The notes under the pieces are model-generated. The model was given only the letters and a program-made list of their open reading frames with translations, was not told the origin of the DNA and did no database searches. Below are positions 26,312 to 62,226 of a DNA stretch of 64,000 nt, in pieces (position 1 is the first letter of the stretch; each line of letters starts with the position of its first letter). Location: NCBI GenBank assembly GCA_963796455.1, contig CAWCLO010000004.1, positions 1,152,001 through 1,216,000 on the forward strand. The letters run 5' to 3'. The DNA is from Candidatus Sulfomarinibacteraceae bacterium (GTDB taxonomy: Bacteria; Acidobacteriota; Thermoanaerobaculia; Thermoanaerobaculales; Sulfomarinibacteraceae). The position numbers were made by a program, and so were the translations under genes.

Positions 26312-27937
26312 TCAATCGCCTACCGGGGTCCACCATGAAGTGTCTCCGCTTTCGAATCCGTCGCCATAGATGATCGTCGGGTCGATCAGGACCACGGCGG
26401 TCTCCTCACATGGGCCGGGACTCGTCACGGTGACCCAGTAGTTGGTGGCGGACTCTGGCGCAACCGAAATCGTGTCCGTCGTTTCCCCGGTACTCCAGGT
26501 GTGGCTGTCGTAAGCCCCGCCGACCGAGAGTTGATAAGGACGGCCGAACGGGGGATCGACGACAATTTCCGGAGCGGCGCACCCAAGATCGGAGGTCATC
26601 GCCGTCACCGATTCGCTCAGATTACTGGCGACGAGGTTCAGGTTGTCTTCGTGTGGGTTGGTATAGGCCGCAACTGCAAGGTCGAAGGATTCCCCCGAAT
26701 CAAGACCCGTGACCGGAAACAAAAGTGTCGCCTTGCCCGAGGTGAAGCCGGCCCGGATCCAGTCGTTCATCCCGATCTCGGAGTAGAAAACCGTATAGCC
26801 TCCTTCGTCCTCCGTGTAAGGGATCGAATCCCAGCTCACCCACACCGTGTGATCGCTCACCGAATCCACCACGAGGTTTAACGGAGCCACGGTCTGGGTA
26901 CCCTCGAATTCGTAATCGGGACGATGAGTCTCGTCGACGAAGGCCTGCACTGCCGGGTCATCAACAAACAGAGCATTCCAGGAAAGAATCATCCCGGTGG
27001 CGCCCGGTGCTGCCAGCTGTGTATTCGTGATCTCGATCGGAATCGCACCGCTGAACAGGTTTCCCCGAACGCTGAGCTTCCGGAGTCCAGTCAGATTTCC
27101 TATCTCAGGCGGAATGGACCCCGAGAAACTGTTGTCGTCCAGGACAATCGTATGCAATCTTGAAAATGTCCCGATTTCCGGTGGGATCGGCCCGGAGAAC
27201 TGATTGTACGAAAGAAGAAGCTGGGAAAGGGAAGAAAGATATTGAATCGACCACGGAATGGGTCCCGTCATCTGGTTGGATCGAAGATCGAGCGAACTCA
27301 GCGAATCCATATCTCCTATCTCGAGCGGGATCGAGCCCGAAAACCGATTCCAGCCGAGTTCGAGAAAAGCGAGTTTTCGCATCTGGCTCAATTCCACCGG
27401 CAACGGCCCGCTGAAATCGTTGGACGACAGATCGAGGGACCAGAGGATCGGCAATGAAATGAGTTCGACTGGGAAACCTCCAGTCAGACCGCAGTCACGG
27501 AGAACCAGAGTCGTCAAACTTGAAACGGAACCGAGATGAGCGAAAACGGCCCCCGCCAGGGTATTCTCCGAGAGATTGAGAAAACGGAGTTCGGTCAGGT
27601 TGGCGAGTTCGGCGGGGATGGACCCGCTCAAGTTGTTTCGCGCCAGATTGATCGACCGAACATGCTTTGGTTCGTAATTGAAGCAGGAAACGCCGTACCA
27701 TCCGCACTCGGTTCCAGGAGGGTTGAAATCGGAGTCGATGGAGTTTCTCCAGTTCGTCCTGTTGGTCCAGTTCTCCCCATCGGTTGCGTTGTACAGTGCG
27801 ATGAGCGCCTCACGTTCAATCTCCGGGACCTGAGCAATCGCTGTCGAACAGATCGGCGCGAGGAACAAAAGGCACCGCAAAATTCGTCGGTTGATTCCGC
27901 GATTGAATAACGACCAGATCGAGTTTTTCAAAATCAT
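26312..27937 (-). CDS. Secreted plant-like leucine-rich-repeat protein with FN3-like domain and C-terminal DGFESGD tag (541 aa)
   Basis: EREALIALYNATDGENW cap, about nine 24-aa LxxLxLxxNxFSGxIP repeats, an FN3-like segment and the terminus IIYGDGFESGDTSWW. Start placed at ATG 27937, which overlaps the upstream TGA. Confidence 0.9.
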   Translation of the reverse strand: MILKNSIWSLFNRGINRRILRCLLFLAPICSTAIAQVPEIEREALIALYNATDGENWTNRTNWRNSIDSDFNPPGTECGWYGVSCFNYEPKHVRSINLARNNLSGSIPAELANLTELRFLNLSENTLAGAVFAHLGSVSSLTTLVLRDCGLTGGFPVELISLPILWSLDLSSNDFSGPLPVELSQMRKLAFLELGWNRFSGSIPLEIGDMDSLSSLDLRSNQMTGPIPWSIQYLSSLSQLLLSYNQFSGPIPPEIGTFSRLHTIVLDDNSFSGSIPPEIGNLTGLRKLSVRGNLFSGAIPIEITNTQLAAPGATGMILSWNALFVDDPAVQAFVDETHRPDYEFEGTQTVAPLNLVVDSVSDHTVWVSWDSIPYTEDEGGYTVFYSEIGMNDWIRAGFTSGKATLLFPVTGLDSGESFDLAVAAYTNPHEDNLNLVASNLSESVTAMTSDLGCAAPEIVVDPPFGRPYQLSVGGAYDSHTWSTGETTDTISVAPESATNYWVTVTSPGPCEETAVVLIDPTIIYGDGFESGDTSWWTPVGD

Positions 27938-29502
27938 GACCCCATGCTCGGAGCTGTCGGCGTTGGCGTTGGCGTCGGTGGGGGAAATGTCGGTGTCCGC
28001 GTTACGGTCGGTGTTCTGGTCGGCGTGACGGTGCCAGTCGGCGTGCGCGTCGGCAGCGTCGAGGTCCAGGTCTCGGAGGTACAGATTTCGCTGCAAGTGA
28101 AATCTGTGCCGACGACCCGGAGGTCGAGACACACCTCGAAGGTACCGTTCCAATGCTCAGGCGTGATGTAGGTGCCGTCGAAATCCACATACCAGAGGGT
28201 CGAGGAGCCTGGCTCAACGACCGCGAATTCGGGCTGCTGGGTTTCGACATCTATCGGTGAATAGCCGTTGCCGTCCCAATAGGCTGAAAAATGCGAATCT
28301 TCGGAAACGGCGAAGTAATCGACATACATGGTCGAGTCGGGAGCCCACAGCGGATAGGTGAATTGGGTCCGGGTGATCTCCACCTCCACCTCGAGATCAC
28401 TCGTGACCGTCGCGATCTGGCTGTTGCCACCTTCCCTCAGGTCGTCAATTGTCAGAAGTTCGCAGTCCACCCAACCCTCGGGTGGAAAGTAGCTGGACCA
28501 CACGGTCATATCGCCCGATTCGAAGCCATCGCTGAAAATGTCGTCCCCACCCACGCCGAAGACCTCGAAAAGGCTGAAGTCACTCATGACGAAGGCGAAA
28601 CCAGAGGCGGCAACGACACCCGTTGCCCGGCCGCGGGTCTCCATCTGCCCTGCGGATGGAACGAGCCTGCCGGAGTTCCTCTCATGGAGGTGAAGGCCAT
28701 CGTCCGCAACGGCCACGAGAAGATGTTTACCCGAAAGTTCTACGGAAAGCGCCTCTATGGAGAGGTCCCCGTCGAGCTCGACCGGATTCGATGGCTGCGA
28801 GATATCGACCACCCGCAAGCCGCCTTGTCCACCGGCCACGAAAACACGGGTGCGATCTACTGCCACGTCGAGGGCACTCGCGCCCGGCAGGAAACAGGAA
28901 GCCACTTCCACCGGAGCCGTGGGATCGCTGATGTCGATGATGCGGAGACCATAGTCCCCCGCGGCTACAAAAACCCTCGAATCACGAATCGCGATGGCTT
29001 GCGCCTCTCCCGGCATGGCAATGTGGCCCACCTCGACGGAGGTGCGGAGGTCGATGACTCGTACACCTCCCCTGCCGGCCGCCACAAAAGCCATGCGACG
29101 CTTTGTGACCACATCTCGTGCTTCCCCGGGAATCGAAATCCTTTCGACTTCCTGGGGATTGAAGGGATCAGAAATATCCACTAGTTTGAGCCCAGCCTCG
29201 CCGCCAGCGATGACCAGGTGCTGACCGGAAACAGACAGCGCATTGGCCGCAGTGCCGGGGAGGTCGAGCCTCGCGACCGGACCAAGCTCCGCCGGTTTTC
29301 GCAGATCGAAGACATGGAGGGCCTTCCCGTCCACTGCCGCAAAGGCGAACGGTCCAACGATCGCGATCGCCGTGGCCGGGCCGGGAAGATCGATCACCGC
29401 CACCGGTTCGACGCGATGATCTGCTGGGAGAAGAAAAGTCAGAGAGCCGAGCAACAGCACACCGACAATGACGAGATCAGCTCGAGGTGGTCGAATGCTC
29501 AA
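27934..29502 (-). CDS. LVIVD-repeat (beta-propeller) protein with internal DGFESGD motif, extra C-terminal domain and Pro/Thr tail
   Basis: Repeats of the form AFVAAG.GGLR.IDISDP..P.EV, internal IFSDGFESGDMTVW, tail TPTRTPTVTRTPTFPPPTPTPTP. TTG start preceded by AAGGAGG. Confidence 0.85.
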   Translation of the reverse strand: MSIRPPRADLVIVGVLLLGSLTFLLPADHRVEPVAVIDLPGPATAIAIVGPFAFAAVDGKALHVFDLRKPAELGPVARLDLPGTAANALSVSGQHLVIAGGEAGLKLVDISDPFNPQEVERISIPGEARDVVTKRRMAFVAAGRGGVRVIDLRTSVEVGHIAMPGEAQAIAIRDSRVFVAAGDYGLRIIDISDPTAPVEVASCFLPGASALDVAVDRTRVFVAGGQGGLRVVDISQPSNPVELDGDLSIEALSVELSGKHLLVAVADDGLHLHERNSGRLVPSAGQMETRGRATGVVAASGFAFVMSDFSLFEVFGVGGDDIFSDGFESGDMTVWSSYFPPEGWVDCELLTIDDLREGGNSQIATVTSDLEVEVEITRTQFTYPLWAPDSTMYVDYFAVSEDSHFSAYWDGNGYSPIDVETQQPEFAVVEPGSSTLWYVDFDGTYITPEHWNGTFEVCLDLRVVGTDFTCSEICTSETWTSTLPTRTPTGTVTPTRTPTVTRTPTFPPPTPTPTPTAPSMGS

Positions 29503-47364: not shown

Positions 47365-47395
47365 AGGGGGCGCGAGCTATCGCGCCCCCTTTTTT
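47365..47395 (+). terminator. Intrinsic terminator of the ECF sigma operon
   Basis: AGGGGGCGCGA-GCTA-TCGCGCCCCCT followed by a T run. Confidence 0.85.
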
Positions 47396-47492
47396 GTTGC
47401 GTTCTATTAAAACGAGAATAATACGCAGTATAATAATCAATACGTTTCAATGCGCGAAAGTTCAATCAGTGCCAGCCAGAAAGGAAATGGCC

Positions 47493-48683
47493 ATGGAGAA
47501 TTTTGTGAATCGACCTGGTATTCCTCGACAAGACGTGGACAATCCACCCTCCAGACACGATCGGCTAGGCAACAATCGATTCGTCGCCGGCATTGCTGCA
47601 ACGGTCATGCTTCTGGCAACTCTGCCGGCCGGGGCACAGCTTGCCACCAAGGACCGGGGTGAAATGGCAAAACCGGTTCAGGTTCGGCTGAAAAGCATGA
47701 AGGCACCACGAATCGAGATCCGGGCCAAGGACGCCGTCGCACACACCTTCGTGCCTCGAAAGGCACCCACCAACGGGATGTTCGTCGAAAAATCGGCAAC
47801 CTTCGCCGTCACCTACATAGGCTTCTCCCCCGCCGCAGAGGCCGCATTCCAGTACGCGGTCGATATCTGGTCACAGCTCATAACTTCTGCAGTCACCATC
47901 AACATCAATGCGACGTGGGGCCCTCTTGGCGAAGGCGTCCTCGGTTCAGCCGGTGCCAATCAGTATTGGTATTACGGTCCGCAGCAATATATTTTTCCGG
48001 ACGCCCTGGTTGACGCCCTCGTCGGAGCCGACCAGGGGGGCGGGGCCGCAGATATCGTGGCTACGTTCAACAGCAACTTCGGCGATTGGTATCTCGGAAC
48101 CGACGGCAATCCGCCGGCCGGCAAATACGATCTTGTCAGCGTCGTCCTTCACGAAATCGGGCATGGGCTCGGATTCCTGGGTCTGCCCATAGTCGATGAC
48201 GGGGCAGATGACGCGGAATGCAACGGGACGGCAGGTATCGGGTGCTGGTTGGCGGGCCCGACGAACCCGGGTATTTTCGACATATTTACCGAGGACAACC
48301 TCGGTAATGCGCTTTTGAACCAGGGGCTTTTTCCTGACAACTCATTCCAGTTGGGCAACGTTCTTACCGGAATGAACGTCTTCTTTGACGGAACCGGCGC
48401 CAGGGCGGGCAACGGCGGGAACCCTCCGGAGCTCTACGCTCCCGGAACGTGGGACGGCGGATCGAGTTACGCTCACCTCGATGAAGCAGTGTTTCCGGCC
48501 GGGAATCCGAACTCACTGATGACGCCCTTTCTCGCTTCGGCGGAAGCGATCCACAACCCCGGTTTGATCACCCTCGGCATCTTCAGCGACATGGGGTGGA
48601 CCGTCGCCGATCCACCGATCTTCAGCGACGGATTTGAGTCAGGAGGCACCGGCAATTGGACCTCGACGGTCGGCGGATTGTGA
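47493..48683 (+). CDS. Secreted zinc metalloprotease-like protein with C-terminal DGFESG tag
   Basis: Signal-like segment, YDLVSVVLHEIGHGLGF (HExxH), GSSYAHLDE...LMTP and terminus IFSDGFESGGTGNWTSTVGGL. Confidence 0.8.
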   Translation: MENFVNRPGIPRQDVDNPPSRHDRLGNNRFVAGIAATVMLLATLPAGAQLATKDRGEMAKPVQVRLKSMKAPRIEIRAKDAVAHTFVPRKAPTNGMFVEKSATFAVTYIGFSPAAEAAFQYAVDIWSQLITSAVTININATWGPLGEGVLGSAGANQYWYYGPQQYIFPDALVDALVGADQGGGAADIVATFNSNFGDWYLGTDGNPPAGKYDLVSVVLHEIGHGLGFLGLPIVDDGADDAECNGTAGIGCWLAGPTNPGIFDIFTEDNLGNALLNQGLFPDNSFQLGNVLTGMNVFFDGTGARAGNGGNPPELYAPGTWDGGSSYAHLDEAVFPAGNPNSLMTPFLASAEAIHNPGLITLGIFSDMGWTVADPPIFSDGFESGGTGNWTSTVGGL

Positions 48684-48857
48684 TCGGCGGGATCAGGATC
48701 TCGCCCCGACTGAACCGATATAACCACCTCGAATTTTCGAAAGGTCAAAAAATCCAAGGTTTCCCCGTTACCTCAGCGACGATTGCGCGTCCTGAAACCA
48801 GAAGCGGAATTGAATATTTGCGTTCCAACGATTGAACGACTCACAGGAGGCACCCAA

Positions 48858-49562
48858 ATGAAGCAAGTCGCGACCCTCGCAATCCTCGTCCTCGGCCTGG
48901 CGATGCTGCCGGCAGCAGCTGACGCCGCAAACTCGGTTACCGTAACTGAAGCTGCTGCAATGCAAGGTACTTATGGTCTCAACCTACACCTTGACGATCC
49001 CGCATCAACCGCCTCGACACAGGCCTATCTCTGGCTGGCCCGGACAAGGGCTTCAGCAACGAATCGACCCTCAATGGTTCGTTCTTCATCAATCCTCAGA
49101 ACATCACCGCCAGCCAGACCCTGGGCCAGAGCCACTTTCAGCTCATGCGTTTTCTACGAGCACTTCAACGATGCCAGCGGCGTCAAGCTGATTTTCTTCC
49201 TCCATCGCGACGAGGTCAGCGGCAATTGGTTCATCACCGTGTGGCACTACGACGATGTCTTCGGCAACTACGTTTTTACCGGCAACGGTTTCTTCGCTCT
49301 CTACGGGAACGCCCTCTTTGATGAAAACAAGATTGATTGGGAGTGGACCGCCGGCAATCCGGGAACCCTCACCATGTACCGGACCCTCTATGTCGACGGC
49401 GTTCCGGACGCCTCTGGCAAGATCCAGATGTTCACCGCACCGACCCCCGGAATGGCCACGGCCGGCATCAACAACGTGTTTGTCGGAATGCTCAATACTT
49501 TGAGCCACAACAACGGAACCGTGGGTGATCTCCACCTCGACGAGTTCGTTTTCACACGCTAA
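48858..49562 (+). CDS. Small secreted beta-rich protein with a compensating pair of indels at ~49031 and ~49150; candidate acceptor for the DGFESG strand
   Basis: AGGAGG RBS, signal peptide MKQVATLAILVLGLAMLPAAADAA and a terminator immediately downstream. Between the indels the alternative frame reads (V)AGPDKGFSNESTLNGSFFINPQNITASQTLGQSHFQLMR. Confidence 0.75.
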   Translation: MKQVATLAILVLGLAMLPAAADAANSVTVTEAAAMQGTYGLNLHLDDPASTASTQAYLWLARTRASATNRPSMVRSSSILRTSPPARPWARATFSSCVFYEHFNDASGVKLIFFLHRDEVSGNWFITVWHYDDVFGNYVFTGNGFFALYGNALFDENKIDWEWTAGNPGTLTMYRTLYVDGVPDASGKIQMFTAPTPGMATAGINNVFVGMLNTLSHNNGTVGDLHLDEFVFTR

Positions 49563-49584
49563 GTACGACGATTTCAAACGTCAG

Positions 49585-49618
49585 GAACTCCCATGCAGTG
49601 CATGGGAGTTCTTTTTTT
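49585..49618 (+). terminator. Intrinsic terminator
   Basis: GAACTCCCATGCA-G-TGCATGGGAGTTC followed by T7. Confidence 0.85.
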
Positions 49619-49661
49619 GACGACGCAGGCGTCGCTCGATGGGAGGCCGCCCCTCCCCCGC

Positions 49662-50564
49662 TCAGGGTGCCCGTTTGCGAGCGCTGAAGATGAGTTGGTG
49701 CGGCCCCAGATAGCCAAGGGGCCTGGACCAGTACGCATGAACGCCCACGTCGCGGAATCCGCAACCCCGCAACGACGACAGCAGATCCCACCCGAAGTGG
49801 TAGAACGCCAGGCATCCTTCACCGGTCAGTGGGTCGCCGTGGAACTCCGGCGGGAGGTGGTGCACGATCTCTCCCTGGGGATCCACCTCCGCTCGGACCA
49901 GAGTATCGGGCCGATCCGGTAGAAAAGGAACCGAGAAATAGAAGAGCCCACCATCTCCGAGCACCCGAGCACATTCGGTAAAAGCCTTGAGATAGCCCGG
50001 TACGTGCTCGAACACGTCAAAGGAAAGCACCGCGTCAAACGATGCGTCGGGAAAACTCAGCTCCGTCACATCCTCATGACGCACGCCGGCCGGGTTGATT
50101 GCGCCGCCCTCCGTTCCGTCTCGAAGAAACTCGCTGCCGACGAGTTTGGGAAATCGTTTTTTCAACTCGGCGTGGAGCGGTGTGACCATCTCGGTCACGA
50201 AAACTCTGGCGTCCGCCTCCAACGCGAACACCTTTTCGAGGATGTGAATGGTGGCTCGCATGCGGTTGTTCAGGCCGCAAGCCTGACAACGCAGATGCTC
50301 CCTCCAGTTCGGCATCCGGATTCCATCGACTTCCCATGAGTATTCTTCGGTCACCAGGAACTCGGATTCTCCGGAACACAGATAACACCATCCCGGCACC
50401 TGAAATTCGAGCCCGTCAGCCATCAGAGATCTTTCCAGAGTTTCTCGTTGTGCGAGAACCGCCGAATCGGATTCGATCTTCGTCCGGTACTCGTCGAAGG
50501 AGCGGAGCGTCATGAGTTCCAGACTGTTTTCCGCCAATCGTCGCTTACGTTGGAAAAACCACAT
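49662..50564 (-). CDS. Class I SAM-dependent methyltransferase with CxxC pairs (glycan-cluster type)
   Basis: CYLC...WREHLRCQACGLNNRMR, HEDVTELSFPDASFD..SFDVFEHV and ARVL..GG. Confidence 0.85.
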   Translation of the reverse strand: MWFFQRKRRLAENSLELMTLRSFDEYRTKIESDSAVLAQRETLERSLMADGLEFQVPGWCYLCSGESEFLVTEEYSWEVDGIRMPNWREHLRCQACGLNNRMRATIHILEKVFALEADARVFVTEMVTPLHAELKKRFPKLVGSEFLRDGTEGGAINPAGVRHEDVTELSFPDASFDAVLSFDVFEHVPGYLKAFTECARVLGDGGLFYFSVPFLPDRPDTLVRAEVDPQGEIVHHLPPEFHGDPLTGEGCLAFYHFGWDLLSSLRGCGFRDVGVHAYWSRPLGYLGPHQLIFSARKRAP

Positions 50565-50744
50565 GAAACCAAACTTAGCGCGCCTCGACCCTTCAGTCCA
50601 TGTACGGGCTCGACTGGTACGACGGCCGCCACGGTTTTCTCGAGACGATCAGTTATCATCGCCAGAGAATTCGAAGGTTCGACAGCGTCAACGCCGTCAG
50701 CAAATATCAACCCGCATCGAAACCCTGGAAATCTGGAGCCGAGA

Positions 50745-51500
50745 ATGAAGGAAACGATTCTGAAGATCGGGGAGCGATTCCTTCCCCCGATCATTCAGGC
50801 GAAATTCAGGTACCGGATGACCGAGGACAGAAATCGGTACTACGATGACCTGACCTCGTGCATCATCCACAAGGACCTGAAACCGACCTCCTGTGCTGTT
50901 GATGTCGGATGCCATATCGGTACGATTCTCGACATCATGATCGAGAGCGCTCCACAGGGAACGTTTTTTGCCTTTGAACCGATCCCGATGCTCTTCGAGA
51001 TGTTGCAGGAGAAATACGGGAATGATTCGAGGGTCCGTCTCTCGCCCCTTGCTCTGAGCGATTCCCCGGGTGAAAGAACCTTTCATTGGGTCACCTCGAA
51101 CCCCGGATACAGCGGCTTTCGCGAGCGCCGCTACGATCGGCCCAGCGAAGAGATTTCAATCATCGAGGTCACGACCCAACTCCTCGACACCGTCATCGCA
51201 CCCGACTGCCACATCGACCTGATCAAAATCGACGTCGAAGGGGCGGAACTCGAGGTTCTGCAGGGGGCGCAAAGGATCCTCGCAAAGGACCATCCGGTGG
51301 TCATCTTCGAACACGGGCTCGGTGCGGCCGATTATTATGAGACGACACCGGAGAAGATCTACGAACTGCTGAACGGCAAATGCGGCCTCAATGTCTCCCT
51401 GCTCGATGGATATCTTCGAAACAAGAAGCCCATGACCTGCGAGGAGTTTCGCAAGAGGTTCTCGGTTGACTACGATTACTATTACGTGGCTCACCCATGA
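50745..51500 (+). CDS. FkbM family methyltransferase
   Basis: VDVGCHIG, FAFEPIP and IKIDVEGAELEVLQGA. Confidence 0.9.
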   Translation: MKETILKIGERFLPPIIQAKFRYRMTEDRNRYYDDLTSCIIHKDLKPTSCAVDVGCHIGTILDIMIESAPQGTFFAFEPIPMLFEMLQEKYGNDSRVRLSPLALSDSPGERTFHWVTSNPGYSGFRERRYDRPSEEISIIEVTTQLLDTVIAPDCHIDLIKIDVEGAELEVLQGAQRILAKDHPVVIFEHGLGAADYYETTPEKIYELLNGKCGLNVSLLDGYLRNKKPMTCEEFRKRFSVDYDYYYVAHP

Positions 51501-51574
51501 GCCTTGGTGAAGAGAAATTCGAATGGATCAATTGATTTCAAAAAACACCAAAAAGACCGGCCGGAGCGAAATCG

Positions 51575-52333
51575 ATGCCGAGTATTGAAGACAACCTCAA
51601 AACCTGGAATCAGTATTACGACTGGCCTGAAGGCGGGCACGAGTGGTCGAGCTTCTGGGGTGGAACCGATGTCTTGTGGGGAGGTTCCCTGTCTCCTCGA
51701 ATTCGATCATTTCTCCCAACCTCTTCGTTGCTGGAAATTGCACCCGGATTCGGAAGGATCACTTCCTACCTGGTGGAACGATGTGAAAAGTACATTGGTG
51801 TAGATCTGGCTGAGAAATGCGTCACCGAGTGCCGCAGCAAATTCTCGGCTTTCGAACATGCAGCCTTTTTTGTGACCGACGGCTACTCATTGAACGACGT
51901 CCCGGACAAATCGGTCGATTTCGCCTTTTCCTTCGACTCGCTCGTTCATGTCGAGGCGGATGTCATGCAGGCCTACGCACGCGAGCTGGCGAGAACACTC
52001 AAGCCCGGCGGTCGCGCGTTTCTGCATCATTCGAATGTCGGGGCCTTTCTCGACTCGTCGACCGGAGAGATCACCATCAGCAACGACCATTGGCGAGGCA
52101 CAACCATGAGCGCCCAGCTCATGAGGGAATTCGCAGCCTCATCCGGCATCCATTGTGCGGTTCAGGAAATCATCAACTGGGGCGGCACGGATCTCAGCGA
52201 TTGTTTTTCGCTTCTGGTGGCTCAATCGCCATCCGATGCAGACGAAACTCTGGTGGTTGAAAACCCCCGATTCATGGATCAGGCCGTAGCGCTCGGGCAG
52301 GCCGCAGAGGTTTTTGCGCGTGCCTCCAAGTAG
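51575..52333 (+). CDS. Class I SAM-dependent methyltransferase
   Basis: LLEIAPGFGR, FSFDSLVH and RTLKPGG. Confidence 0.88.
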   Translation: MPSIEDNLKTWNQYYDWPEGGHEWSSFWGGTDVLWGGSLSPRIRSFLPTSSLLEIAPGFGRITSYLVERCEKYIGVDLAEKCVTECRSKFSAFEHAAFFVTDGYSLNDVPDKSVDFAFSFDSLVHVEADVMQAYARELARTLKPGGRAFLHHSNVGAFLDSSTGEITISNDHWRGTTMSAQLMREFAASSGIHCAVQEIINWGGTDLSDCFSLLVAQSPSDADETLVVENPRFMDQAVALGQAAEVFARASK

Positions 52334-55214
52334 TGAAGACTTCGACCGTCTGAAACTGGGATCGTCTGCGGACGATCCAGCCGGCTCCAGGTCGTCCGAT
52401 GTCGATCCGGTTCTCGAGCAGATCTACCGGATCTCCGACGAACGTGATGGTTATTACAGCGAGTGGAAAAACAGCCAGAACCAGATACGGCAGGTTCGAA
52501 CATCCCTGATGTGGCGCGTGGCAAAGGCGTCACTCGCCATCCGCCGCCTTTTTCACCGGCCCGAACCCAAATGGCTCACGGAATCACTCTTCGATGCCAT
52601 CGAGGCAACACCACCGGACGGCAACAAATTCGAAAAGGCCCCAGACCCCGGGGCGGGTCGCTCCACTCTGCGCAGAAAGCCCATCAGAATGGCCGATCGA
52701 GACTCTCATCTCGAACGGGTCACCTTCGAGCGAAACGGGTACTACGGCGAGTGGCGTCACACCGAAAACCGACTCGAGACCATTCACTGCTCGGATCTTT
52801 GGCTTCATTGGGAGCCTTTCCGGAGATTCAAAACCCGTCTGGGTTTTGCCCTCTATCTCCTGAAGGTCATTCGTGGGCTCACCATATCGATCGTCCTTGC
52901 ACCATTCCGTGCCGTCATCCTGGCAGCAAAAAGCATTACCAAACTTCCTGGGGTCGTGTATACGCTCTGCTGGACAGCGGCGACTTCCTTGCGCGCGGTA
53001 TTTCGCGATGGCAGAACCATCGAGGCGAAGGTTCAAGCAGCGGACAACCCGAATCAATCTGAGAGCTTCCGGCCGAGGATTCTCATCGTCTCTCCCTACC
53101 ACCTCCATCCGCCAAACCACGGATCGGGCGTCCGACTGCTCAATCTCGTGCGTGAGCTCGCGTCATCCTGCGACGTTTTTCTACTCGTTTTTTCGCCTAC
53201 CGGAGAAAATCCTGAAGAGCGAAAAGCTCTCGAGGCGCTGTGTCGTCGGGTCGACTACCACCGATGGTTACCCCATCTCAAACCAAATCCGTTTGGCCTC
53301 ACACCGGCCGTGGCCGAGGTCTTCCGATCCGACCGCGTGACCGAAAAAATCCGTGACATCGTGATCGCCAACGATATTGACATCGTGCAACTCGAGCACG
53401 CCGAGTTGGGTCAGTACCGGCACGCCGTCCCGAAGGGCATTCCAGTGGTGTTGAGTGAGATCGACATTGCTTTCAGGACGCACCAGCGCAGGCGCAAGCT
53501 CAGTTTCCACACCCGCTTCGACGAAGCCCAGATCCTCCATACAACTACGATGGATGTCCTGCGTCTTTTCCGCTACGAGGTGCAGAATTGCAAGCACGTT
53601 CAGCAGATCCACACGATGTCGGAAATCGATGCAGCCTATCTGGCCCGCTTCCTGGCAGACGGAGCATCCCGGATACGCGTCATCCCGAATGGGGTCGACA
53701 CCGATGCCTTCCGTCCAACCCAACCCGCGGGACAACGAAACGATGTGCTTTTCGTCGGTAACTTCAACCACCTGCCGAATGTCGATGCGCTCGATTTCTT
53801 GCTCAAGGACGTCTGGCCCTTGCTTCGACTTCGAGTACCCGACGCGCGGCTGAACGTCGTCGGCGCAAGTCCCTCGGACCGAGTCACAGCCTTGACCGAC
53901 TGTCCCGGTGTCACGCTCATCGGCGAAGTGCCCGATCCGAGATTGTATTACCACCGGCACCGCGTCATGGTGGCTCCGATTCGTGCCGGTTCCGGCACCC
54001 GCCTCAAGATTCTCGAGTCCTTTGCGGCCGGCATACCCGTCGTATCGACATCGCTTGGGGCGGAGGGCATCGAGGCGGAGAACGACAAGCATCTCATTCT
54101 CGCCGATCGCGCGATGGACTTTGCAGATGGCATCGAACGAGTCCTGACCGATGACGCACTTTTCGAGTCCTTAGCGGAGGCCGCATCGTCCCTGGTCCGG
54201 CAAAAATACGATTGGCGATTCGTGGCACAACGAATGCACGAGGGCTTCCTCGATCTGATTCCCGAGAAGAAGCGGATTGAGATGGAAGCTGTTCGGAACG
54301 CCAAATCGGAAAAGCAGCAGCAGATCTCCTTGGTAGAACAGGGACCATTGCCCTTGGTGTCGATCGTGATACCGACCTTTCGCGGCGGCGCGGACCTCGA
54401 ACGGTGTCTGTCGTCGATCAGAAAGCAGCAGGTCGATTTTGACTACGAAATCCTGTGCGTCGATTCAGGTTCGGATGCCAGTGACATCGAAATCATGCAA
54501 CGATTTGGCGCGCGGGTCATCGGTATCGCCCAGAAGGAATTCAATCACGGCCTGACCCGGGACTTTGGCGCAACCTGTGCGCGTGGCGAATACCTCGTCT
54601 TGATGAGCCAGGATGCCGTGCCGATCCGGAACGACTGGCTCGACCGGCTGACCGAGCCCCTCCGGGTGGACAGCACCGGGACGTTGGCGGCCGTCCAAGG
54701 GGGCAGCATAGATGTTGTCGATACCGAGAGACGATTCTTCTGGGGCACATCCGGTGAACGTTTCTATTTCACCAGCGAATCACATCGTTGGATCGAACGG
54801 TTCGGCGGTGTCGGTTTTTCGACCACGAATTGTGCGATCCGCCGGATCGTCTGGGATCAATACCGGTTTGGCGAGGCCTCGATTCTCGAAGACAAAAAGT
54901 GGCAACGGCAGATTCTCGATGCAGGTTATGAAATCTGCGCTCTGCCGGAGGTGAAGGTCTTTCACTCTCACGACTACGATCTTCGAACATTACTTCGCCG
55001 TTGCTCGAGCGAGGGCTTCGGCTGGAGGTCTCTCGGTGAACGCTATAGCCTGATCGACGCAGTATCCGACGTGTTTTCACCGTCGGTATGGCGAGAGCTA
55101 CTTTTTGGTTTACAACAGAAATCAGTGCGCACCAGCGCAGAGATCGGTTTTCCGCTGCTGCGGCCCTTTGCTCTGTGGTGGGGAAATCGCTTCTCCCGCC
55201 GGGTTCTGCACTGA
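52314..55214 (+). CDS. Bifunctional glycosyltransferase (GT4 plus GT2) with duplicated N-terminal helical module
   Basis: GT4 motifs IPNGVD, FVGNFNHLPN, GSGTRLKILE and PVVSTSLGAEG; GT2 motifs VSIVIPT, VDSGS, FNHGLTR and SQDAVP. Start uncertain. Confidence 0.88.
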   Translation: MRVPPSSEDFDRLKLGSSADDPAGSRSSDVDPVLEQIYRISDERDGYYSEWKNSQNQIRQVRTSLMWRVAKASLAIRRLFHRPEPKWLTESLFDAIEATPPDGNKFEKAPDPGAGRSTLRRKPIRMADRDSHLERVTFERNGYYGEWRHTENRLETIHCSDLWLHWEPFRRFKTRLGFALYLLKVIRGLTISIVLAPFRAVILAAKSITKLPGVVYTLCWTAATSLRAVFRDGRTIEAKVQAADNPNQSESFRPRILIVSPYHLHPPNHGSGVRLLNLVRELASSCDVFLLVFSPTGENPEERKALEALCRRVDYHRWLPHLKPNPFGLTPAVAEVFRSDRVTEKIRDIVIANDIDIVQLEHAELGQYRHAVPKGIPVVLSEIDIAFRTHQRRRKLSFHTRFDEAQILHTTTMDVLRLFRYEVQNCKHVQQIHTMSEIDAAYLARFLADGASRIRVIPNGVDTDAFRPTQPAGQRNDVLFVGNFNHLPNVDALDFLLKDVWPLLRLRVPDARLNVVGASPSDRVTALTDCPGVTLIGEVPDPRLYYHRHRVMVAPIRAGSGTRLKILESFAAGIPVVSTSLGAEGIEAENDKHLILADRAMDFADGIERVLTDDALFESLAEAASSLVRQKYDWRFVAQRMHEGFLDLIPEKKRIEMEAVRNAKSEKQQQISLVEQGPLPLVSIVIPTFRGGADLERCLSSIRKQQVDFDYEILCVDSGSDASDIEIMQRFGARVIGIAQKEFNHGLTRDFGATCARGEYLVLMSQDAVPIRNDWLDRLTEPLRVDSTGTLAAVQGGSIDVVDTERRFFWGTSGERFYFTSESHRWIERFGGVGFSTTNCAIRRIVWDQYRFGEASILEDKKWQRQILDAGYEICALPEVKVFHSHDYDLRTLLRRCSSEGFGWRSLGERYSLIDAVSDVFSPSVWRELLFGLQQKSVRTSAEIGFPLLRPFALWWGNRFSRRVLH

Positions 55215-55262
55215 GTTGGGTCGGCTCCCACCGTTGAGCAAAAAGCGTCGGCGCAATCCGGG

Positions 55263-56235
55263 CTAGGTCATGGGCAACCACGCCTTTGCGGTCGTCTCCG
55301 CGGGCCACCGCCAACGATCAACGGTGAAAACGGTTGGAAGTACGGCTCGCATGTATCCGCGCAATGATCGCCGCTGGCAGCGGACGATCAGGTCATCGCC
55401 GTGGTTGCTCTGGCTCGACGCCTCACGGACCCGTTTTGAAATGGTTCGCCGGCCTTTCATCAAACCGATCAAACCGCCGTGGCGCCAGTTGATCACCGCC
55501 TCCGACCTTCCCTGGGCTTCAAAGCGTTTTTTCAGCCATTCCGGCGACAGCCGCTCGATGTTGACCTTGTGGCGCACCCTCGCCTCCGGCACATAGGCAA
55601 TCTCTCCGCCCAATCTTTCGATCCTCAGACACAACTCGATCTCTTCGCAGGACAGCAGATTGTTTCCCTTCCGGCCGAGGTCGGTACAGAAGCCACCGAC
55701 GGAATCGAAGACTTCGCGCCGGAAGGCGACATTCGCGCCGCGCGGATATTCGTCGTAGTGGAGCCTTCGCGCCGAATCACCCAGGTCCCACACCGAAAGA
55801 TACGGCAGAAATCTGCCAAGAAACCAGTCCGGTAATTCACCCTGAAAGACAGGTTCGATCGGGCCCCCAGCGCACTGGATCCCGTCGATGAGGAGCGCAT
55901 CGATGATCGCCTGAAGCCATCCCCGCGCCGGAAAAGCATCATCGTCCAGAAAGGCAATGAAATCACCCTTCGCATTGCGCACGCCGGTATTCCGGGCGGC
56001 AGAAAGACCCAGCTCGGTCTCCTGCAGCACCCGGACCTGGTCGGGGAAATCGTTCTCGACCGAGCGCGCCACATCGAGGGTGTCGTCGGTCGAACAATTG
56101 TCGATGATCAGAAACTCCCACCGCATGCCGCCGGACAGACCTCTGTTGCAGGGCGTCACGACAGCACTCCCCCAGGAGAGACGACCGGTTTCGAGTACAG
56201 ACGACCACCGTCACATCGGGAGAAGATTTCACCAT
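55263..56235 (-). CDS. GT2 glycosyltransferase, one frameshift near 56145
   Basis: MVKSSPDVTVVVCTRNR in one frame continues as WEFLIIDNCSTD...GLSAARN...FLDDDA...GANVAFRR in another. Confidence 0.8.
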
Positions 56236-56390
56236 CGCTCCATATAGTACCGAGTCCTCGGTGTTGCGGCCCCTCAATTCGAAGAAGTTTGGAACGACCG
56301 CTTCTCCGCGAAGGCTATCGAGCCTCTGCGAAACCCCTGCCCTGGTGTATCGTTGTGCCATCACGAAGCCGAACGAGGTGTGAAGACCCA

Positions 56391-58241
56391 TTGGAAATCA
56401 AGAAAATCGCCCGCAGTGCCCTCGAGGCCGTCTCCCGGAGGCTGAAAAACCATCGCTATGCCCGCGACACTGTTGATGGAAAGCCTGCCGGTACCTTTGC
56501 GTATCAATTTGCCGGTGACGGCCCGACGGGACACCTGCCTCTGACCCTTTGGTGCCGAGCCGTTGACTCGAGACTGCCGACTCGAGCCGAGGCCAAAGCC
56601 TGGATCGACCAACAAACCCTGCCCGAACTCGTGATTATCGGGCTGAGCGGCGCGGGAGACGAATTGTGGCGTGTCTCGCGACACTCCGCACCAAAGCACG
56701 CAGACAGTTCCTTCTGGTTTGCAGCGCCCGGGAAGCTCCCCGATCTCCTTCCCAACCACCTCGAATCATCTTTCCTCGTCGCCGCGGCTGAGGACGTCGA
56801 TGCCGTACTTCTCTTCGAAGGCTCCGGCCCATACCCCGAACTCCCAGCCCACGTCCCGGGAGTCGAGTGCGCATCACCCTATCGCGAGCGGGCACTCTAC
56901 CGCTCGGATGCCTATGCCTACCATGCAGCCACCGACGAAGTCCGTCCGGTGAAAGAGCAACGAATCATCAAGCTCATCGATCCCCGCGACGCCGAAGCGA
57001 CCGAAGCGACCGCGCGGCTCTTCAATCGATTCCGCCGGGGCCCCTATCTCAGTACGACGGAATTGACTGAAAAGTTGATCGTGCCCGTCCGCGATGCCGG
57101 CTTGGTCGAGCGAGACGCATCGCAAAACCACCTCCCGGCGGTTCTGATCATGGTGCCCTTTCTGGCCCGCGGCGGCGTCGAGCAGACCCTCTACGCCACC
57201 ATGGGCGCGCTGTCGGATCGTTTTGATTTTTCCATCGCCACCCTGGCGCCGCATCGAGAGGCCCTCGGCGACCGGCGCGACGATTTCCGGACCATCACCG
57301 ACCGCATCTATTGTCTCGGCGATCTCGTCCATCCGGATGTCATGATCGGGATCATCGAATCCATACTCGATTCAACCGGTGCCGAGATCATTTACAACGC
57401 CAACGGCACGACGCTTTTTTACGACTTCGCGGCGAGACTGAAAGAAAACCGGCCATCACTCCGAATCATCGATCACCTCTATGACCACGAGGTGGCCTAT
57501 ATCGATCGCTACAACGACGATCTGCTGGCCGCGGTCGACGTATGCGTGGCGGAGAACCATTTGATTGCCGACGAGCTCACCCGGCGCAGGTCCTGGCCCG
57601 CCGAACGCGTGCCCGTGATCTGGCCCTGTGGGCGACCGCAGGACGAGCTTCCCGAGCCCGCCGACCGGCCCAGAATCCGGACTGCGCTGAGGGGCGAGCT
57701 CGATCTCGCCGAGAGTGACGTGGTCGTGATCACGGCAGCGAGAATGAACCACCAGAAACGGCCCCTCGACCTGGTTCGATTGGCCGAACGCGTCCACGAT
57801 CTCGAGCACCTTCAATTCCTGGTTGTCGGCGGCGGCGATCTCGAGATGGAGATGGATCGGGAAATCGCCGGCAATCCTGAACTGCATATTCGCCGCCTGC
57901 CGTTTCGACCCGACATCCCCGAACTCATCCTCGCTGCCGATGCCGGCTGTCTGGTGTCCGAATTCGAGGGGCTGCCGGTCTTCATGCTCGAATGTCTTCA
58001 ACTCGGCAGGCCCTTCCTGGGTACCCGAGTCGGAGATCTGGGGAGAGTCCTGGACCAGACCGGCGCCGGGATCGTGGTGGATCAACCCGGCGACCTCGAC
58101 GCTCTGGAAGCGGCGGTCCGGCGCTTGGCTGACAGCAGTTTTCGCGCTGAACTCGCGCAAAAGGCCGTCGAGGCCGCCCCGAGGTTTTCCGTCGAAAGAT
58201 GCGCAGACGCCTACTCGGCAGCCTTTCTCGGAGACGATTGA
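56391..58241 (+). CDS. GT4 glycosyltransferase with N-terminal accessory domain
   Basis: PFLARGGVE, ARMNHQKRP, SEFEGLPVFMLE and TRVGD. Start uncertain (TTG 56391 chosen). Confidence 0.82.
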   Translation: MEIKKIARSALEAVSRRLKNHRYARDTVDGKPAGTFAYQFAGDGPTGHLPLTLWCRAVDSRLPTRAEAKAWIDQQTLPELVIIGLSGAGDELWRVSRHSAPKHADSSFWFAAPGKLPDLLPNHLESSFLVAAAEDVDAVLLFEGSGPYPELPAHVPGVECASPYRERALYRSDAYAYHAATDEVRPVKEQRIIKLIDPRDAEATEATARLFNRFRRGPYLSTTELTEKLIVPVRDAGLVERDASQNHLPAVLIMVPFLARGGVEQTLYATMGALSDRFDFSIATLAPHREALGDRRDDFRTITDRIYCLGDLVHPDVMIGIIESILDSTGAEIIYNANGTTLFYDFAARLKENRPSLRIIDHLYDHEVAYIDRYNDDLLAAVDVCVAENHLIADELTRRRSWPAERVPVIWPCGRPQDELPEPADRPRIRTALRGELDLAESDVVVITAARMNHQKRPLDLVRLAERVHDLEHLQFLVVGGGDLEMEMDREIAGNPELHIRRLPFRPDIPELILAADAGCLVSEFEGLPVFMLECLQLGRPFLGTRVGDLGRVLDQTGAGIVVDQPGDLDALEAAVRRLADSSFRAELAQKAVEAAPRFSVERCADAYSAAFLGDD

Positions 58242-58242
58242 G

Positions 58243-60074
58243 TTGTCCGGACCGTCGTTCCACCACCGTGCCCAGGCCCTTTTCTGGGAACACAACCGGC
58301 CGCTTCGAGCGTTGGCCCGCCGGATACGCAGAACGCTCTCCCTGATCTTGTATCGACTCCGAGGCCGAGTCGTCGATGCGCAACCTCCCCGGGTGGTGGC
58401 CAAACCCAGCCCCAACCTGGACCAAACCATCCCCCATCCGGCCATCGCTGTAGAAATCGGGAATAGTGTTTCACGGCAGGGAGTGGAGGCCTTTCTCGAC
58501 GGCCAGACTGAGCGTTCGGTTGTTCAGGTATCAGAATCGGCGTCCGACCCCAGCTTTGTCATCACGGTCGGAACGGGATGCAGTCTTCTGCCGCCGACCC
58601 ATCTCGAATCGCTTCTGATGGCGGCCTGCGCAGAGGACCTCGATTGGACGATCGGAGGATGGGCAGGACCGGCCCCGGGGCGATTCGGGCCCACCGGCCG
58701 GACCGCTCGCGATGACCGCGTCGATCCGGCCTCGTATGTCCTCGTCAGACTCCCGCACGACGGTCGCTGCATCCGGCGCAAGCTCACCGGACGATCGGTT
58801 CCTCACATCTGTGACATCGCGCACCTCGAGCAACCGGTGCCGACCGCCGAACCGTTTTCGATCCGATCCGGAGCTCACCGCCTTCACCACCGCATCTCCT
58901 CTGGCAGCATTACAGAGACCCCGGTTTACGACATTGACAGCGTCATGGCCCATGTTCCACCGGTGGATGGACCAAGAACTGTCCTGTTCCTCCTCCCCTA
59001 TCTTGCGGTAGGTGGTGCGGAGGCTCTGCTTCAGACCCTCGTCCGAGGCTTTGGTGACCGCTATCGCGTGATCATCGCGACCACCGACCCCCATCTGCAG
59101 GCCCTCGGTCAAACCGTTGACCGTTTTCGGGAACTGTCGCCACAGGTGTACACCCTGGGCGACTGGTTGCCGAAGGAGGCGATTCCGTCAGCCATCCGCC
59201 ATCTGTTGCGGCGGTGGCAAGTTGAGAGCCTGGTGTGCTGGAACGGCAATGTCTTTTTTTATGATCATGTGGACTCGATCAAGCGCCATTTCCCGTCAAT
59301 CCGGACCATCAACCAGCTCTACAACCATCGTGGCGGTTGGATCGAACACTATTGCCCCACCATCGTGAAGGCCACCGATCTCCACATCGCCGTCAACAGT
59401 CCGATTGCCAGAGCACTGGCGGAGGAACGGGCGGTTCCCGAACCGTCGATCAATACCATCTTCCACGGTGTGGAAATCCCCGATCTGGCGGACAACGAGG
59501 AGCGTGACCGGAAGAAGGCTCGACTTCGTCTCGAACTGGGTCTCCCGAATGACGCGCTCGTGGTTGGATCGTTCATCCGCATGCATGCACAAAAACGGCC
59601 TCTCGACATCATCCGGGTGGCACGAAAAATGGTGGACGAAGGCATTCATTTTCTGCTCGTCGGTGGCGGGTCACTGGACCGGGAGGTGGACAAAGAAATC
59701 CAGATCAACGGCCCACCGAATCTCACCCGCTTGCCGATGAGGGAGGACGCCCGGGATCTCTACGACGCGATCGATATCTGCCTGATGACGTCTTCGTTCG
59801 AGGGGCTTCCGGTGTTCCTGCTCGACGGTCTCGCCCGGGCGCTCCCTTGTGTCGCTCCGGGAGTCGGAGACATCCCCCTTCTCCTCGGCAAGGGCGGTGG
59901 CGTCGTCACCGAGAGACCGGGTGACATCGACGCCCTGGTCGCCGGAATCCGGAAGCTCAAAGACCCTGGACTGCGCCGCGAAGAGGGCTCCGCGGGCGCT
60001 CCACGGTGATCTCCAACTACGGCAACGACAAATTTGTGTCGAACTACGAAACTGCTATCTTTCCTGCACCATGA
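58243..60074 (+). CDS. GT4 glycosyltransferase, paralog of the upstream gene; frameshift near 59988
   Basis: PYLAVGGAE, RMHAQKRPLD and SSFEGLPVF. Adding one base near 59988 gives ..RGRSTVISNYGNDKFVSNYETAIFPAP* whose TGA overlaps the next ATG (60071-60074). Confidence 0.8.
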
Positions 60075-61041
60075 ATGCACCAACGGTCAGCGTGCTCGTA
60101 CCCTCGTACAACCACGATCGCTTTATCGGCGAAGCAATCGCCAGCGCCCTCGCCACGGATCTGACAGCGTCGAAATCGTGATCGTGGACGACGGCTCGAC
60201 AGACGATCAACCAGGGACGTGCTCCAGCGCCTTTTCCCAGGATGACCGGGTTCGAGTCTTCGATCAGGAGAACCGGGGCGCCCACGCGGCACTCAACCGA
60301 TGCCTCGAACTCGCACGGGGTGAGTACCTCTTCATTCTCAACTCGGACGATGTCTATCCGCCGCAGCGGATTCCCCGTCTGGTCGCAGGAGCTGCAGGAA
60401 CACCCGGAAGCGGCGCTCGCCACGTCCTGGATCCAGATCATCGACGACGATGGCAAAGAGCTCGGGATCAAGGAGGCTGGCACAATCTGCCGCCGTGGGA
60501 GCCGCCCACGGAGGGCCCCTATCTTTCCGCCATTGGGGACCCGAAGCTTGCCATGCTCGAGACCAATTTTGTCTCAACGACCTCGAATCTCGCCTTCCGC
60601 CGTTCCCTGATCGAGAATCAGGGTCTCAGGTTTCAAGCCTCTGCGCTACGCCCACGACTGGGATTTCATCCTATCGGCCTGCCATCACGGAGATCTTCGG
60701 GTGGTCACGGACCCGTTGATCTCTACCGCGTCCATTCGACGAACACGATCAAGGAAGGTGCCGACTCCGGAGTCGGGCCGATGCGTTTCGAGATTCAGTG
60801 GGTGGTCGCCCGCCACGCCTATCGGCTGCTCAAATCAGCGGCCGGACCAAGGGACACGATTGACGACCTCATTCAACTCGCCTGGAACTCGATGCCGAGC
60901 TTCGGTTGTGACGGAATCCTCGACCGCCTCCTCGTGCTCCGGGGTGAAACGGACACTCCGCCGGCTACCTATGACGCGCTCATCGATCCCGACCATCCCC
61001 TGCACCGATCCGCGGTTGTCACCCTCGCCGCTGCGGATTAG
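60071..61041 (+). CDS. GT2 glycosyltransferase broken by several single-base indels (sequencing error or pseudogene)
   Basis: Segments VSVLVPSYNH, VEIVIVDDGSTD, ENRGAHAALN..LNSDD, ALATSWIQIID and LRYAHDWDF..YRVH are spread over three frames. Confidence 0.75.
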
Positions 61042-62226
61042 TCGGCCACCAATTCGTCGAAACTCCGCAGAGTCCTGGCGTCAACGGTGAGTTCCTGCCG
61101 CTTCAATTCTTCCAGAAAAGCACTGCAGCCCGTTGCCCACGAGATTGGTGAACCAGAAGGCGCATAGACGTCTGGCCGCCTTGTCGTTCTCACTGGCCGA
61201 AGCCATCCCCTTGAGGTATCCATATTGAAAGAGCTTGTGCAGCAGCGGATCAACGACCGAGGTCGCAGGCAAATCAAATTCGGCTGCGAGTTCCAGAACG
61301 CCCTCTTCCAAGGCCTCGAGCTTGTCTTCAACCGCGAGAACCCGCCGGCGCCTCGCCCCAAAGATGAGCTTTTCACGAATCCGGGAGCGCCGGATCTGCT
61401 GCGCTCCGATGTCGCGTCGGGTTTTCGGCCATTTCTCGATCAACACCGAGCCCATCTTGCCGCACGACATCTGGCGGGCGAAAAATGACGGCGCATCATA
61501 GGCGTGGTGGTGCCAGGCGCGGGCTGAGGCCCGATACACGATTCGCATCCCCCGACGCCGTAGCCGATACGAAAACTCGGCATCTTCGAATGCCGCGGCG
61601 GGGAAATCCTTGCTGAAACCGGTGAACTCCTCTTCGAGAAGCTTTCTGGAAGCCGAGACATTGCTTGTGTAAAAATGGCGATAGTCGTACTCGTCGCCAT
61701 CGGTCATGTAGTGAAAGCTGAACTGCTGGGCGCCGACACCGTCGACATGACGCATTGTGGACGTGAGTTCGAGATCAGGAGACCAGGAGATGTTGCCCAA
61801 AACGGCCCAGCGATCACTGATCATCCCTTTCCGGGCATCGAGATGGCTCTTGAGCAGATCCGGTGACGGCTCGATATCGTCACCGGTATAAAGGACCCAC
61901 TCCCCAGTAGCGGCCGCCAGGCCGTAGTTGCGCGCCACCGCGGGCCCCTGATTCTCCTGGCGGAGAACGACCAGCGAATACCTCGTGGGCTTTGTGGCGG
62001 CGAGCAGTTCGGATGTGCGATCACCAGATCCGTCGTCCACGACCACGATCTCAAAGGGGAGATCGTTGGGGGTCTGTCGTTCCCACGCCCGCAGCATCTT
62101 CTCCAATGTCGCGGCACGATTCCATGTGGGGATGATGACCGAAAACTTCGGAAGGGTGCTTTCACCATGCACTGAGTTGTGACTCCGATCACGCGTCGTG
62201 GTAACTGTCGCCGATTTCGTGTCCAT
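61038..62226 (-). CDS. GT2 glycosyltransferase; probable extra base near 61123
   Basis: FSVIIPTWNR, VVDDGS, NQGPAVARN, GDDIEP and FED.EFSYRL. The shifted tail AFLEELKRQELTVDARTLRSFDELVAD* ends at a TAA overlapping the convergent TAG. Uncorrected, the ORF ends at 61081. Confidence 0.82.

Follow-up and report, generated by a model that had tools for sequence, protein, structure and literature searches.

Does the short tail that closes a secreted protease in this acidobacterial genome represent a missing piece of the small secreted protein encoded next to it? In the window (by which we mean the whole stretch of 64,000 nucleotides from a Candidatus Sulfomarinibacteraceae bacterium that was analysed here), a gene for a predicted zinc metalloprotease is followed after 174 bp by a second gene, with its ATG at 48858 and its stop at 49560-49562, whose product we call the acceptor (Table 1). 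A sequence-only reading had proposed that a beta-sandwich domain is cut in two at this locus, with its first strand placed on cargo proteins as a DGFESG tag and the remainder exported as a free, "headless" protein.

Table 1. Features of the protease-acceptor locus and its surroundings, with further tags in the window.
Feature	Position	Strand	Basis
C-terminal tag on LRR-containing secreted protein (26315-28096)	26327..26395	-	tag profile; Pfam
Internal tag in 535-codon open frame upstream of LRR gene	28492..28539	-	tag profile
Intrinsic-terminator-like hairpin, end of upstream ECF sigma/anti-sigma/LiaF-like operon	47365..47400	+	11 pairs and T run; Pfam
Sigma-70-like promoter match 5' of protease	47407..47434	+	10/12, consensus match only
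Predicted secreted zinc metalloprotease, tagged cargo	47493..48683	+	sequence and ORF list; HExxHxxGF (HEIGHGLGF) at 48150-48176; family matches below cut-off
C-terminal docking tag IFxDGFESG..W.. of protease (predicted)	48618..48680	+	profile; strand 1, Ca2+ loop and strand 2 of jelly-roll (Cip1 numbering, PMC3764139)
RBS AGGAGG of acceptor	48845..48850	+	sequence
Predicted signal peptide of acceptor	48858..48929	+	by eye; equivalent layout in 128 homologues (hydropathy rule)
Headless ConA-like jelly-roll acceptor, mature chain	48930..49562	+	invariant Glu69, Gly210, Asp228, Arg234
Out-of-frame segment between two compensating single-base indels	49031..49150	+	alternative-frame match; X3 contig
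Intrinsic-terminator-like hairpin 3' of acceptor	49583..49620	+	14 pairs and T run
Methyltransferase/glycosyltransferase cluster (surface-glycan locus) adjoining acceptor	49662..62106		Pfam

The protease does end in the proposed tag: IFSDGFESGGTGNW is read at 48618-48659 on the plus strand, and seven residues remain before the stop. Its matches to Peptidase_M10 in Pfam (E 0.018) and to NF038122 in NCBIfam (76.9 bits, cut-off 80) fall short of the cut-offs. Upstream, at 45410-47336, lie genes for an ECF sigma factor, a zf-HC2 anti-sigma factor and a LiaF-like membrane protein. The identical triple stands directly upstream of the acceptor in a related genome (G226, locus L088), and in another (G008, L095) the anti-sigma and membrane genes of the triple are one gene from it, so that the protease appears to have been inserted between the triple and the acceptor; control of the acceptor by envelope stress is possible in this context. 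We also considered the acceptor as a private partner of this protease and rejected it, since its closest orthologues (G008 and G005) have different neighbours. The adjacency is thus not conserved, and the acceptor is better regarded as a partner for the whole genome than as this protease's own.

The view that the acceptor gene is an independent unit was borne out by a ribosome-binding site, a hydrophobic leader that by eye ends in an AxA-type site, and a 14-pair stem-loop with a T run. Its frame is open from 48858 to 49562, yet about 40 codons (approximately 59 to 98) are out of frame. The alternative frame of these codons matches a database protein, P0002, which is nearly identical otherwise, and one contig from run X3 (depth 2.7) contains one extra base behind 49030, which bears on the first indel only and not on the second, near 49145. 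As the alternative frame matches P0002 and the contig restores the base near 49030, a genuine frameshifted allele is less likely than assembly error, and the two compensating indels are probably errors of the latter kind; the corrected chain proposed earlier agrees with P0002. Neither the acceptor nor the tag has a family in Pfam or NCBIfam, no Pfam family was found for P0002, P0058 or P0133, and neither the tag nor the fused profile gave a significant sequence match in the PDB. One homologue comes from Thermoanaerobaculales, and it and the nearest Atlas clusters indicate Acidobacteriota. The genome encodes two headless proteins (the window acceptor and a paralogue at C4:342585-343259) and one fused copy of the domain, inside a frame of 3,740 codons.

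The tag itself is spread across the genome. A profile built from 40 regex seeds gave 59 matches of at least 12 bits in the six frames (58 matches at E<=0.01), against a best score of 10.8 bits on reversed translations, which argues that the tag is not a product of chance. Among the 59 matches, 48 are C-terminal, 4 are N-terminal after a leader and 7 are internal, and by a crude rule 37 of the tagged frames have a recognisable leader. All 39 C-terminal regex tags of the genome continue for 7 to 23 residues past FE, and no transmembrane helix or basic tail was seen in these extensions. Further tags had been expected within the window, and two are present on the minus strand (Table 1). Several tags in the genome are found in frames of 51 to 130 codons that have no start, suggesting frequent single-base errors in the assembly. 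The window also encodes, at 4849-25748 on the minus strand, two very large Ig-like/Calx-beta surface proteins of 2,384 and 4,460 codons.

Homologues bear on the proposed cut. When 1.84 billion representatives were searched with a domain profile, 841 matched, and we classified 177 proteins, namely the best 150 of the 841 and earlier matches, a sample that leans toward the headless query; 17 domain matches that were partial or cut at the N terminus were excluded. In this sample, 128 homologues consist of a signal peptide and a headless domain with no tag, while the internal domains that could be classified, 79 in 40 long proteins, all have a tag about 16 residues upstream, and none of the 177 proteins combines the signal-peptide-headless layout with a tag. 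The fused homologues that the sequence-only reading described exist, and so does the cut that it proposed. The window acceptor is without the first ~22 residues of the jelly-roll, and a search for longer forms of the acceptor gave only 5 proteins. One headless subfamily (L051, L103, L105, L108, L110 and L111) has an insertion of ~85 residues after the second strand; it is present in several copies per genome in G011, G161, G245, G263 and G267, and one tag-fused version of it was seen (L109).

Structure models place the missing segment more exactly. The acceptor (124 sequences, pLDDT 95) is modelled as a ConA-like jelly-roll, whose alignment with Cip1 begins at residue 23 (Z 12.7, rmsd 3.0, 167 aligned residues) and with the glucuronan lyase 2ZZJ at residue 19 (Z 14.2, rmsd 3.0, 184 aligned). 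A natural tag-fused domain from G055 (pLDDT 92, with 71-78 over its first 20 residues) aligns with 2ZZJ from residue 2 (Z 20.0, rmsd 2.5, 195 aligned) and with Cip1 from residue 1 (Z 17.7, rmsd 2.8, 183 aligned). The aligned ranges weigh more here than the gain in Z, because the headless and fused models represent different sequences. In Cip1, strand 1 comprises Ile2-Asp4, a loop extends from Phe6 to Trp15, and strand 2 comprises Pro16-Ser18, with Asp5 O, Glu7, Ser37, Asn40 and Asp206 as the Ca2+ ligands, as given in PMC3764139. Taken with the aligned ranges, this structure equates the tag with the first two strands of the fold and the Ca2+ loop that joins them. The acceptor model is without exactly the tag segment (it aligns from Cip1 residue 23 onward), in line with the open slot that had been anticipated. 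The idea of the tag as a fold-completing beta-strand stands as far as the missing segment is concerned, and has to be revised in that the tag is not a single strand but spans two strands and the loop between them.

The mapping also predicts a shared metal site. Asp228, which we equate with Asp206 of Cip1 by the ends of the aligned ranges and not residue by residue, is present without exception in the headless (126/126) and the fused domains (79/79), 205/205 in all. By this mapping, the tag would provide one Ca2+ ligand, the Glu of FE, and the acceptor the invariant Asp, so that the Ca2+ site would be completed in trans by the two chains, and docking is predicted to depend on Ca2+. The headless chain may also be stable alone, as the model reaches pLDDT 95 without the tag. 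This raises the possibility that the headless protein is self-sufficient and lectin- or lyase-like, having lost its first strands, and that the tags do not interact with it, being either a remnant or a sorting signal of unrelated kind. The confident fold fits this, as do the fold neighbours of the acceptor, which are polysaccharide lyases and lectins, and the glycan-locus context described below; no Pfam match of the acceptor to a polysaccharide lyase family was found, and the Atlas lead for it is PF21340 (0.95), carried by 48% of members. A protein acting alone leaves unexplained the strict dichotomy of tag or signal peptide, and why an invariant Ca2+ Asp should be kept without its Glu partner.

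Across the class, tags and domain occur together. In 251 genomes, searched with equal settings for tag and domain (the samples being taken as identical) and with 11 candidates per genome scored for the domain, a headless or fused domain was found in 46 of the 51 tag-rich genomes (7 or more tags) and in 7 of the 200 others, counts that are inflated by the kinship of the genomes and do not represent independent trials. Of the 46 positives, a signal peptide followed by a headless domain was read in 43 and is suggested by coordinates in 2 more, G074 being the remaining one. The exceptions run in both directions, as a self-sufficient acceptor would allow. Among the 7 tag-poor positives, four are fused and three (G061, G089 and G225) are headless, no more than 2 tags having been detected in each, and no headless match was found in five of the 51 tag-rich genomes (G017, G018, G025, G036 and G192; 180-740 contigs, 91-95% complete) or, among 61 relatives, in tag-rich G012 and G019-G022. 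All of these tag-rich genomes are incomplete MAGs, although G021, with 57 tags, is in only 50 contigs (86% complete). Extra profiles gave no headless gene in G017, G018, G021, G025 and G192 (A5 and A7) or in G012, G019, G020, G022 and G036 (A5); G019 and G036 have degenerate fused copies only. In G061 (2.0 Mb, 97% complete) a bare acceptor lies among genes for sulfatase-fold proteins (L305:7986-8624), but the tag matches are only two and weak, perhaps because the tags of this genome have diverged.

The same two parts are found in a second phylum, with the cut at another position. A scan for the tag followed immediately by a stop gave at least 123 loci, and the 80 matches listed are mostly from Dokdonella, Rudaea, Marinicella and other Gammaproteobacteria. 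Five short-tag gammaproteobacterial genomes have 56-167 tag-pattern matches each, compared with 1-7 in controls, and each of the five harbors one acceptor homologue. In five gammaproteobacterial genomes 26-75 tags end within two codons of GFE/D, a count in which some entries are doubled or out of frame, and long Trp-type tags number 0-1. All 30 of the gammaproteobacterial acceptors inspected begin with a signal peptide, a Cys, a few residues and a Trp, with the FE motif absent, and when their profile is aligned with the fused domain (probability 99.8), the match starts at residue 7 of the latter and pairs Trp with Trp. The tags end at GFE and the acceptors retain the Trp segment, so that the split point has shifted in both halves; the acceptor in each lineage is without just the part that its tags supply. 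This shift, which had not been foreseen earlier, strengthens the case for a split domain, and complementary split points are difficult to explain if tag and acceptor are unrelated. In 201 genomes of the gammaproteobacterial order, acceptor matches were found in 110 of 121 genomes with at least 15 pattern matches (leaving 11 tag-rich genomes with none), in 9 of 17 with 7-14 and in 8 of 63 with at most 6, counted with two profiles after two dockerin-only matches were dropped, most matches of the second profile being counted uninspected. The expected association of tag expansions with acceptor genes thus holds in two phyla, with a minority of tag-rich MAGs in which no match was found. Small secreted proteins encoded right 3' of gammaproteobacterial acceptors end in a second common tail, LPVxLQxFxV (L296:2802-5875, L297:5418-5915, L300:6801-7277 and L301:6562-7041), which is possibly another strand-donor or sorting tag.

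Tag and domain have also been recombined. The acceptors of G034 carry a tag at their own C terminus, and in G239 the acceptor is located among four tagged genes. Eight cargo-tag-domain fusions lie nested within the headless genes; seven of the eight belong to the subfamily of the window protein, and a single fused clade is rejected (AU p 2.8e-54; three changes; 39-row subset, midpoint root only). Neither the self-tagged acceptors nor these re-fusions are explained by a headless protein that acts alone, and we consider that possibility the least probable of those weighed here.

Other fusions point to the cell surface. SLH repeats are joined to the acceptor in G010, G023, G099 and G175, as they are in G014 if a frame break is bridged; in G099 the gene after the SLH-fused acceptor encodes a polysaccharide pyruvyl transferase domain. 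G089 has an acceptor-dockerin fusion above the Pfam cut-off. In that genome (L306:2-6525, L113:1851-2798), where one tag was detected, the fusion gene stands directly after a gene for a 1,577-residue protein that seems to end in a dockerin-like repeat too. One gammaproteobacterial acceptor subfamily has a dockerin-like tail (weak Pfam matches below cut-off in 4 of 8 scanned), and downstream of these genes lie a small cohesin-like gene, a call that rests on one Atlas lead (0.93, family in 14% of members), and a gene ending in IPTL-CTERM, a call made from 2 Pfam matches and otherwise by eye. That one headless domain bears such varied anchors suggests that it serves as an adaptor in displaying proteins at the surface. 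The window acceptor has no anchor domain, and a simple regex found no SLH-type motif in its genome; polysaccharide pyruvyl transferase and flippase genes are nevertheless present at 29747-32244.

A different role for the same binding would be that of a transient periplasmic escort or chaperone, with which tagged cargos are exported (e.g., by a type II system) and which is then recycled. One or two acceptor genes for ~60 cargos here, and for up to ~160 pattern matches in Gammaproteobacteria, would suit such a role, as would the mostly C-terminal position of the tag (48/59) and the lack of an anchor domain in most acceptors, the window's included. The SLH and dockerin-type fusions fit a fixed surface position instead, and the fused forms hold the domain on the cargo permanently. 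Moreover, no secretion genes lie within three genes of the acceptor in 20 acidobacterial loci, and none were seen by eye around gammaproteobacterial acceptors (20 loci of 6-13 kb, with 30 proteins scanned against Pfam). We therefore regard an escort as unlikely, and surface docking remains the preferred reading.

The neighbourhood points to surface glycans. In 17 of 20 acidobacterial loci, which were hand-chosen as well assembled and high scoring and for which the figure stands without a background rate, genes for sulfatase-fold proteins, sulfotransferases, glycosyltransferases or methyltransferases occur within three genes on either side of the acceptor, and the surroundings of the window acceptor agree with this glycan-modification context. 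The acceptor could accordingly be read as a major, probably glycosylated, subunit of a surface layer or fibre in which tagged proteins occupy a fraction of the slots. Besides the glycan loci, its own RBS and terminator and its usually single copy are compatible with this, and a codon usage that resembles that of ribosomal protein genes (89th percentile among 2754 genes; the paralogue is at the 16th) favours it weakly. The SLH- and dockerin-anchored acceptors resemble adaptors, and a lattice is not in evidence. Genera listed with an NpdA S-layer in Table 3 of PMC10765051 (Dokdonella, Rudaea, Wenzhouxiangella and Sedimenticola) overlap the short-tag lineages. According to that source npdA adjoins gsp genes, which were not seen by eye in the 20 gammaproteobacterial acceptor loci, and a subunit role seems slightly less likely still than that of an escort.

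We propose instead that a ConA-like jelly-roll is split into a plug of ~20 residues on many exported cargos and a socket of ~210 residues that is secreted separately. After export, the plug would enter the vacant N-terminal slot of the socket and restore strands 1-2; its insertion would complete the Ca2+ site (Glu of the tag FE and Asp228 of the socket) and so dock the cargo. The socket would act as an adaptor to the cell surface, tied by SLH repeats in some lineages and by a dockerin-like tail with cohesin-like and IPTL-CTERM genes in others. The bare socket found here would most likely bind the modified surface glycan of the adjoining gene cluster or pack into a surface layer, a choice between glycan binding and layer self-assembly that we offer tentatively. 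The split architecture, the fold, the residue mapping, the co-occurrence, the complementary split points and the anchor fusions are computed; physical complementation of tag and acceptor is very probable on these sequences and models, and surface docking by the split jelly-roll is likely the best explanation overall. With somewhat less assurance, we think it probable that Acidobacteriota and Gammaproteobacteria (Dokdonella, Pseudofulvimonas, Marinicella and kin) share a widespread surface-display system that is a natural tag and catcher derived from a split Ca2+-binding jelly-roll, in which lineage-specific split points give orthogonal pairs and one catcher recruits 50-160 enzymes and adhesins, with SLH repeats, dockerin-cohesin-IPTL-CTERM or glycan as the link to the envelope. 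If true, this would represent a new anchoring principle, fold completion, as opposed to enzymatic sorting or the pairing of two complete modules, and would account for one of the most frequent unannotated tails that exported proteins of these lineages carry; a tag of 9-20 residues, probably Ca2+-switchable and with natural orthogonal variants, would be a useful tool for protein engineering. Docking is directly testable, since a single acceptor gene and 56-167 tag-pattern matches are present in cultured members of the Gammaproteobacteria. At the level of listings of the open-access literature, we found no description of the tag or of the acceptor.

How does the proposed system compare with known ones? 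In C-terminal sorting signals (PEP-CTERM, IPTL-CTERM, LPXTG and the T9SS CTD), as here, a common C-terminal signature is present on many unrelated secreted proteins of a lineage. Unlike them, our tag has no transmembrane helix or basic tail and occurs also at N-terminal (4) and internal (7) positions, and its partner is a secreted fold fragment and not a processing enzyme or translocon. SpyTag/SpyCatcher is an engineered pair of peptide tag and catcher obtained from one split beta-sandwich, whereas the pair described here is natural, genome-wide, presumably non-covalent and predicted to be Ca2+-assisted. Cellulosomes are built by cohesin-dockerin docking, with anchoring scaffoldins that bear SLH repeats. 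As in that system, a small Ca2+-linked module would be carried by many unrelated enzymes and received by one surface-tied partner, and some acceptors bear SLH repeats or a dockerin-like tail as scaffoldins do. Cohesin and dockerin are two complete folds, whereas the tag is a fragment of 9-20 residues of its partner's own fold. The tagged protease has no match to Dockerin_1 in Pfam, so the cargo module is not the duplicated EF-hand-like dockerin, and the receiver, with its ConA-like fold and no Pfam family for P0002, P0058 or P0133, is not a cohesin.

Donor-strand complementation and exchange are known from chaperone-usher pili, in which a peptide of another chain fills out an incomplete beta-sandwich in trans, as is predicted here from architecture and covariation. 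The WxL Elr pilus is a donor-strand system with a constant attachment module and variable payloads (bioRxiv 10.64898/2026.10.17.759780). Those systems use a pilin or WxL fold, whereas the fold here is a ConA-like jelly-roll with a predicted metal site in the interface; the donors here are dozens of cargos across the genome, with no chaperone or usher gene among 120 acceptor neighbours, and a head-to-tail polymer is not expected because none of the 128 standalone acceptors carries a tag (the self-tagged acceptors of G034 being the exception). The closest structural relatives, Cip1 (PDB 3ZYP) and the PL20 glucuronan lyase (PDB 2ZZJ), share the fold, the N-terminal strand-loop and the Ca2+ site with its C-terminal Asp, as described in PMC3764139. 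They are single-chain proteins of 10-16% identity, whereas the window protein is without residues 1-22 of the fold. By analogy, the system would work like cohesin-dockerin on the principle of donor-strand complementation, while belonging to neither class.
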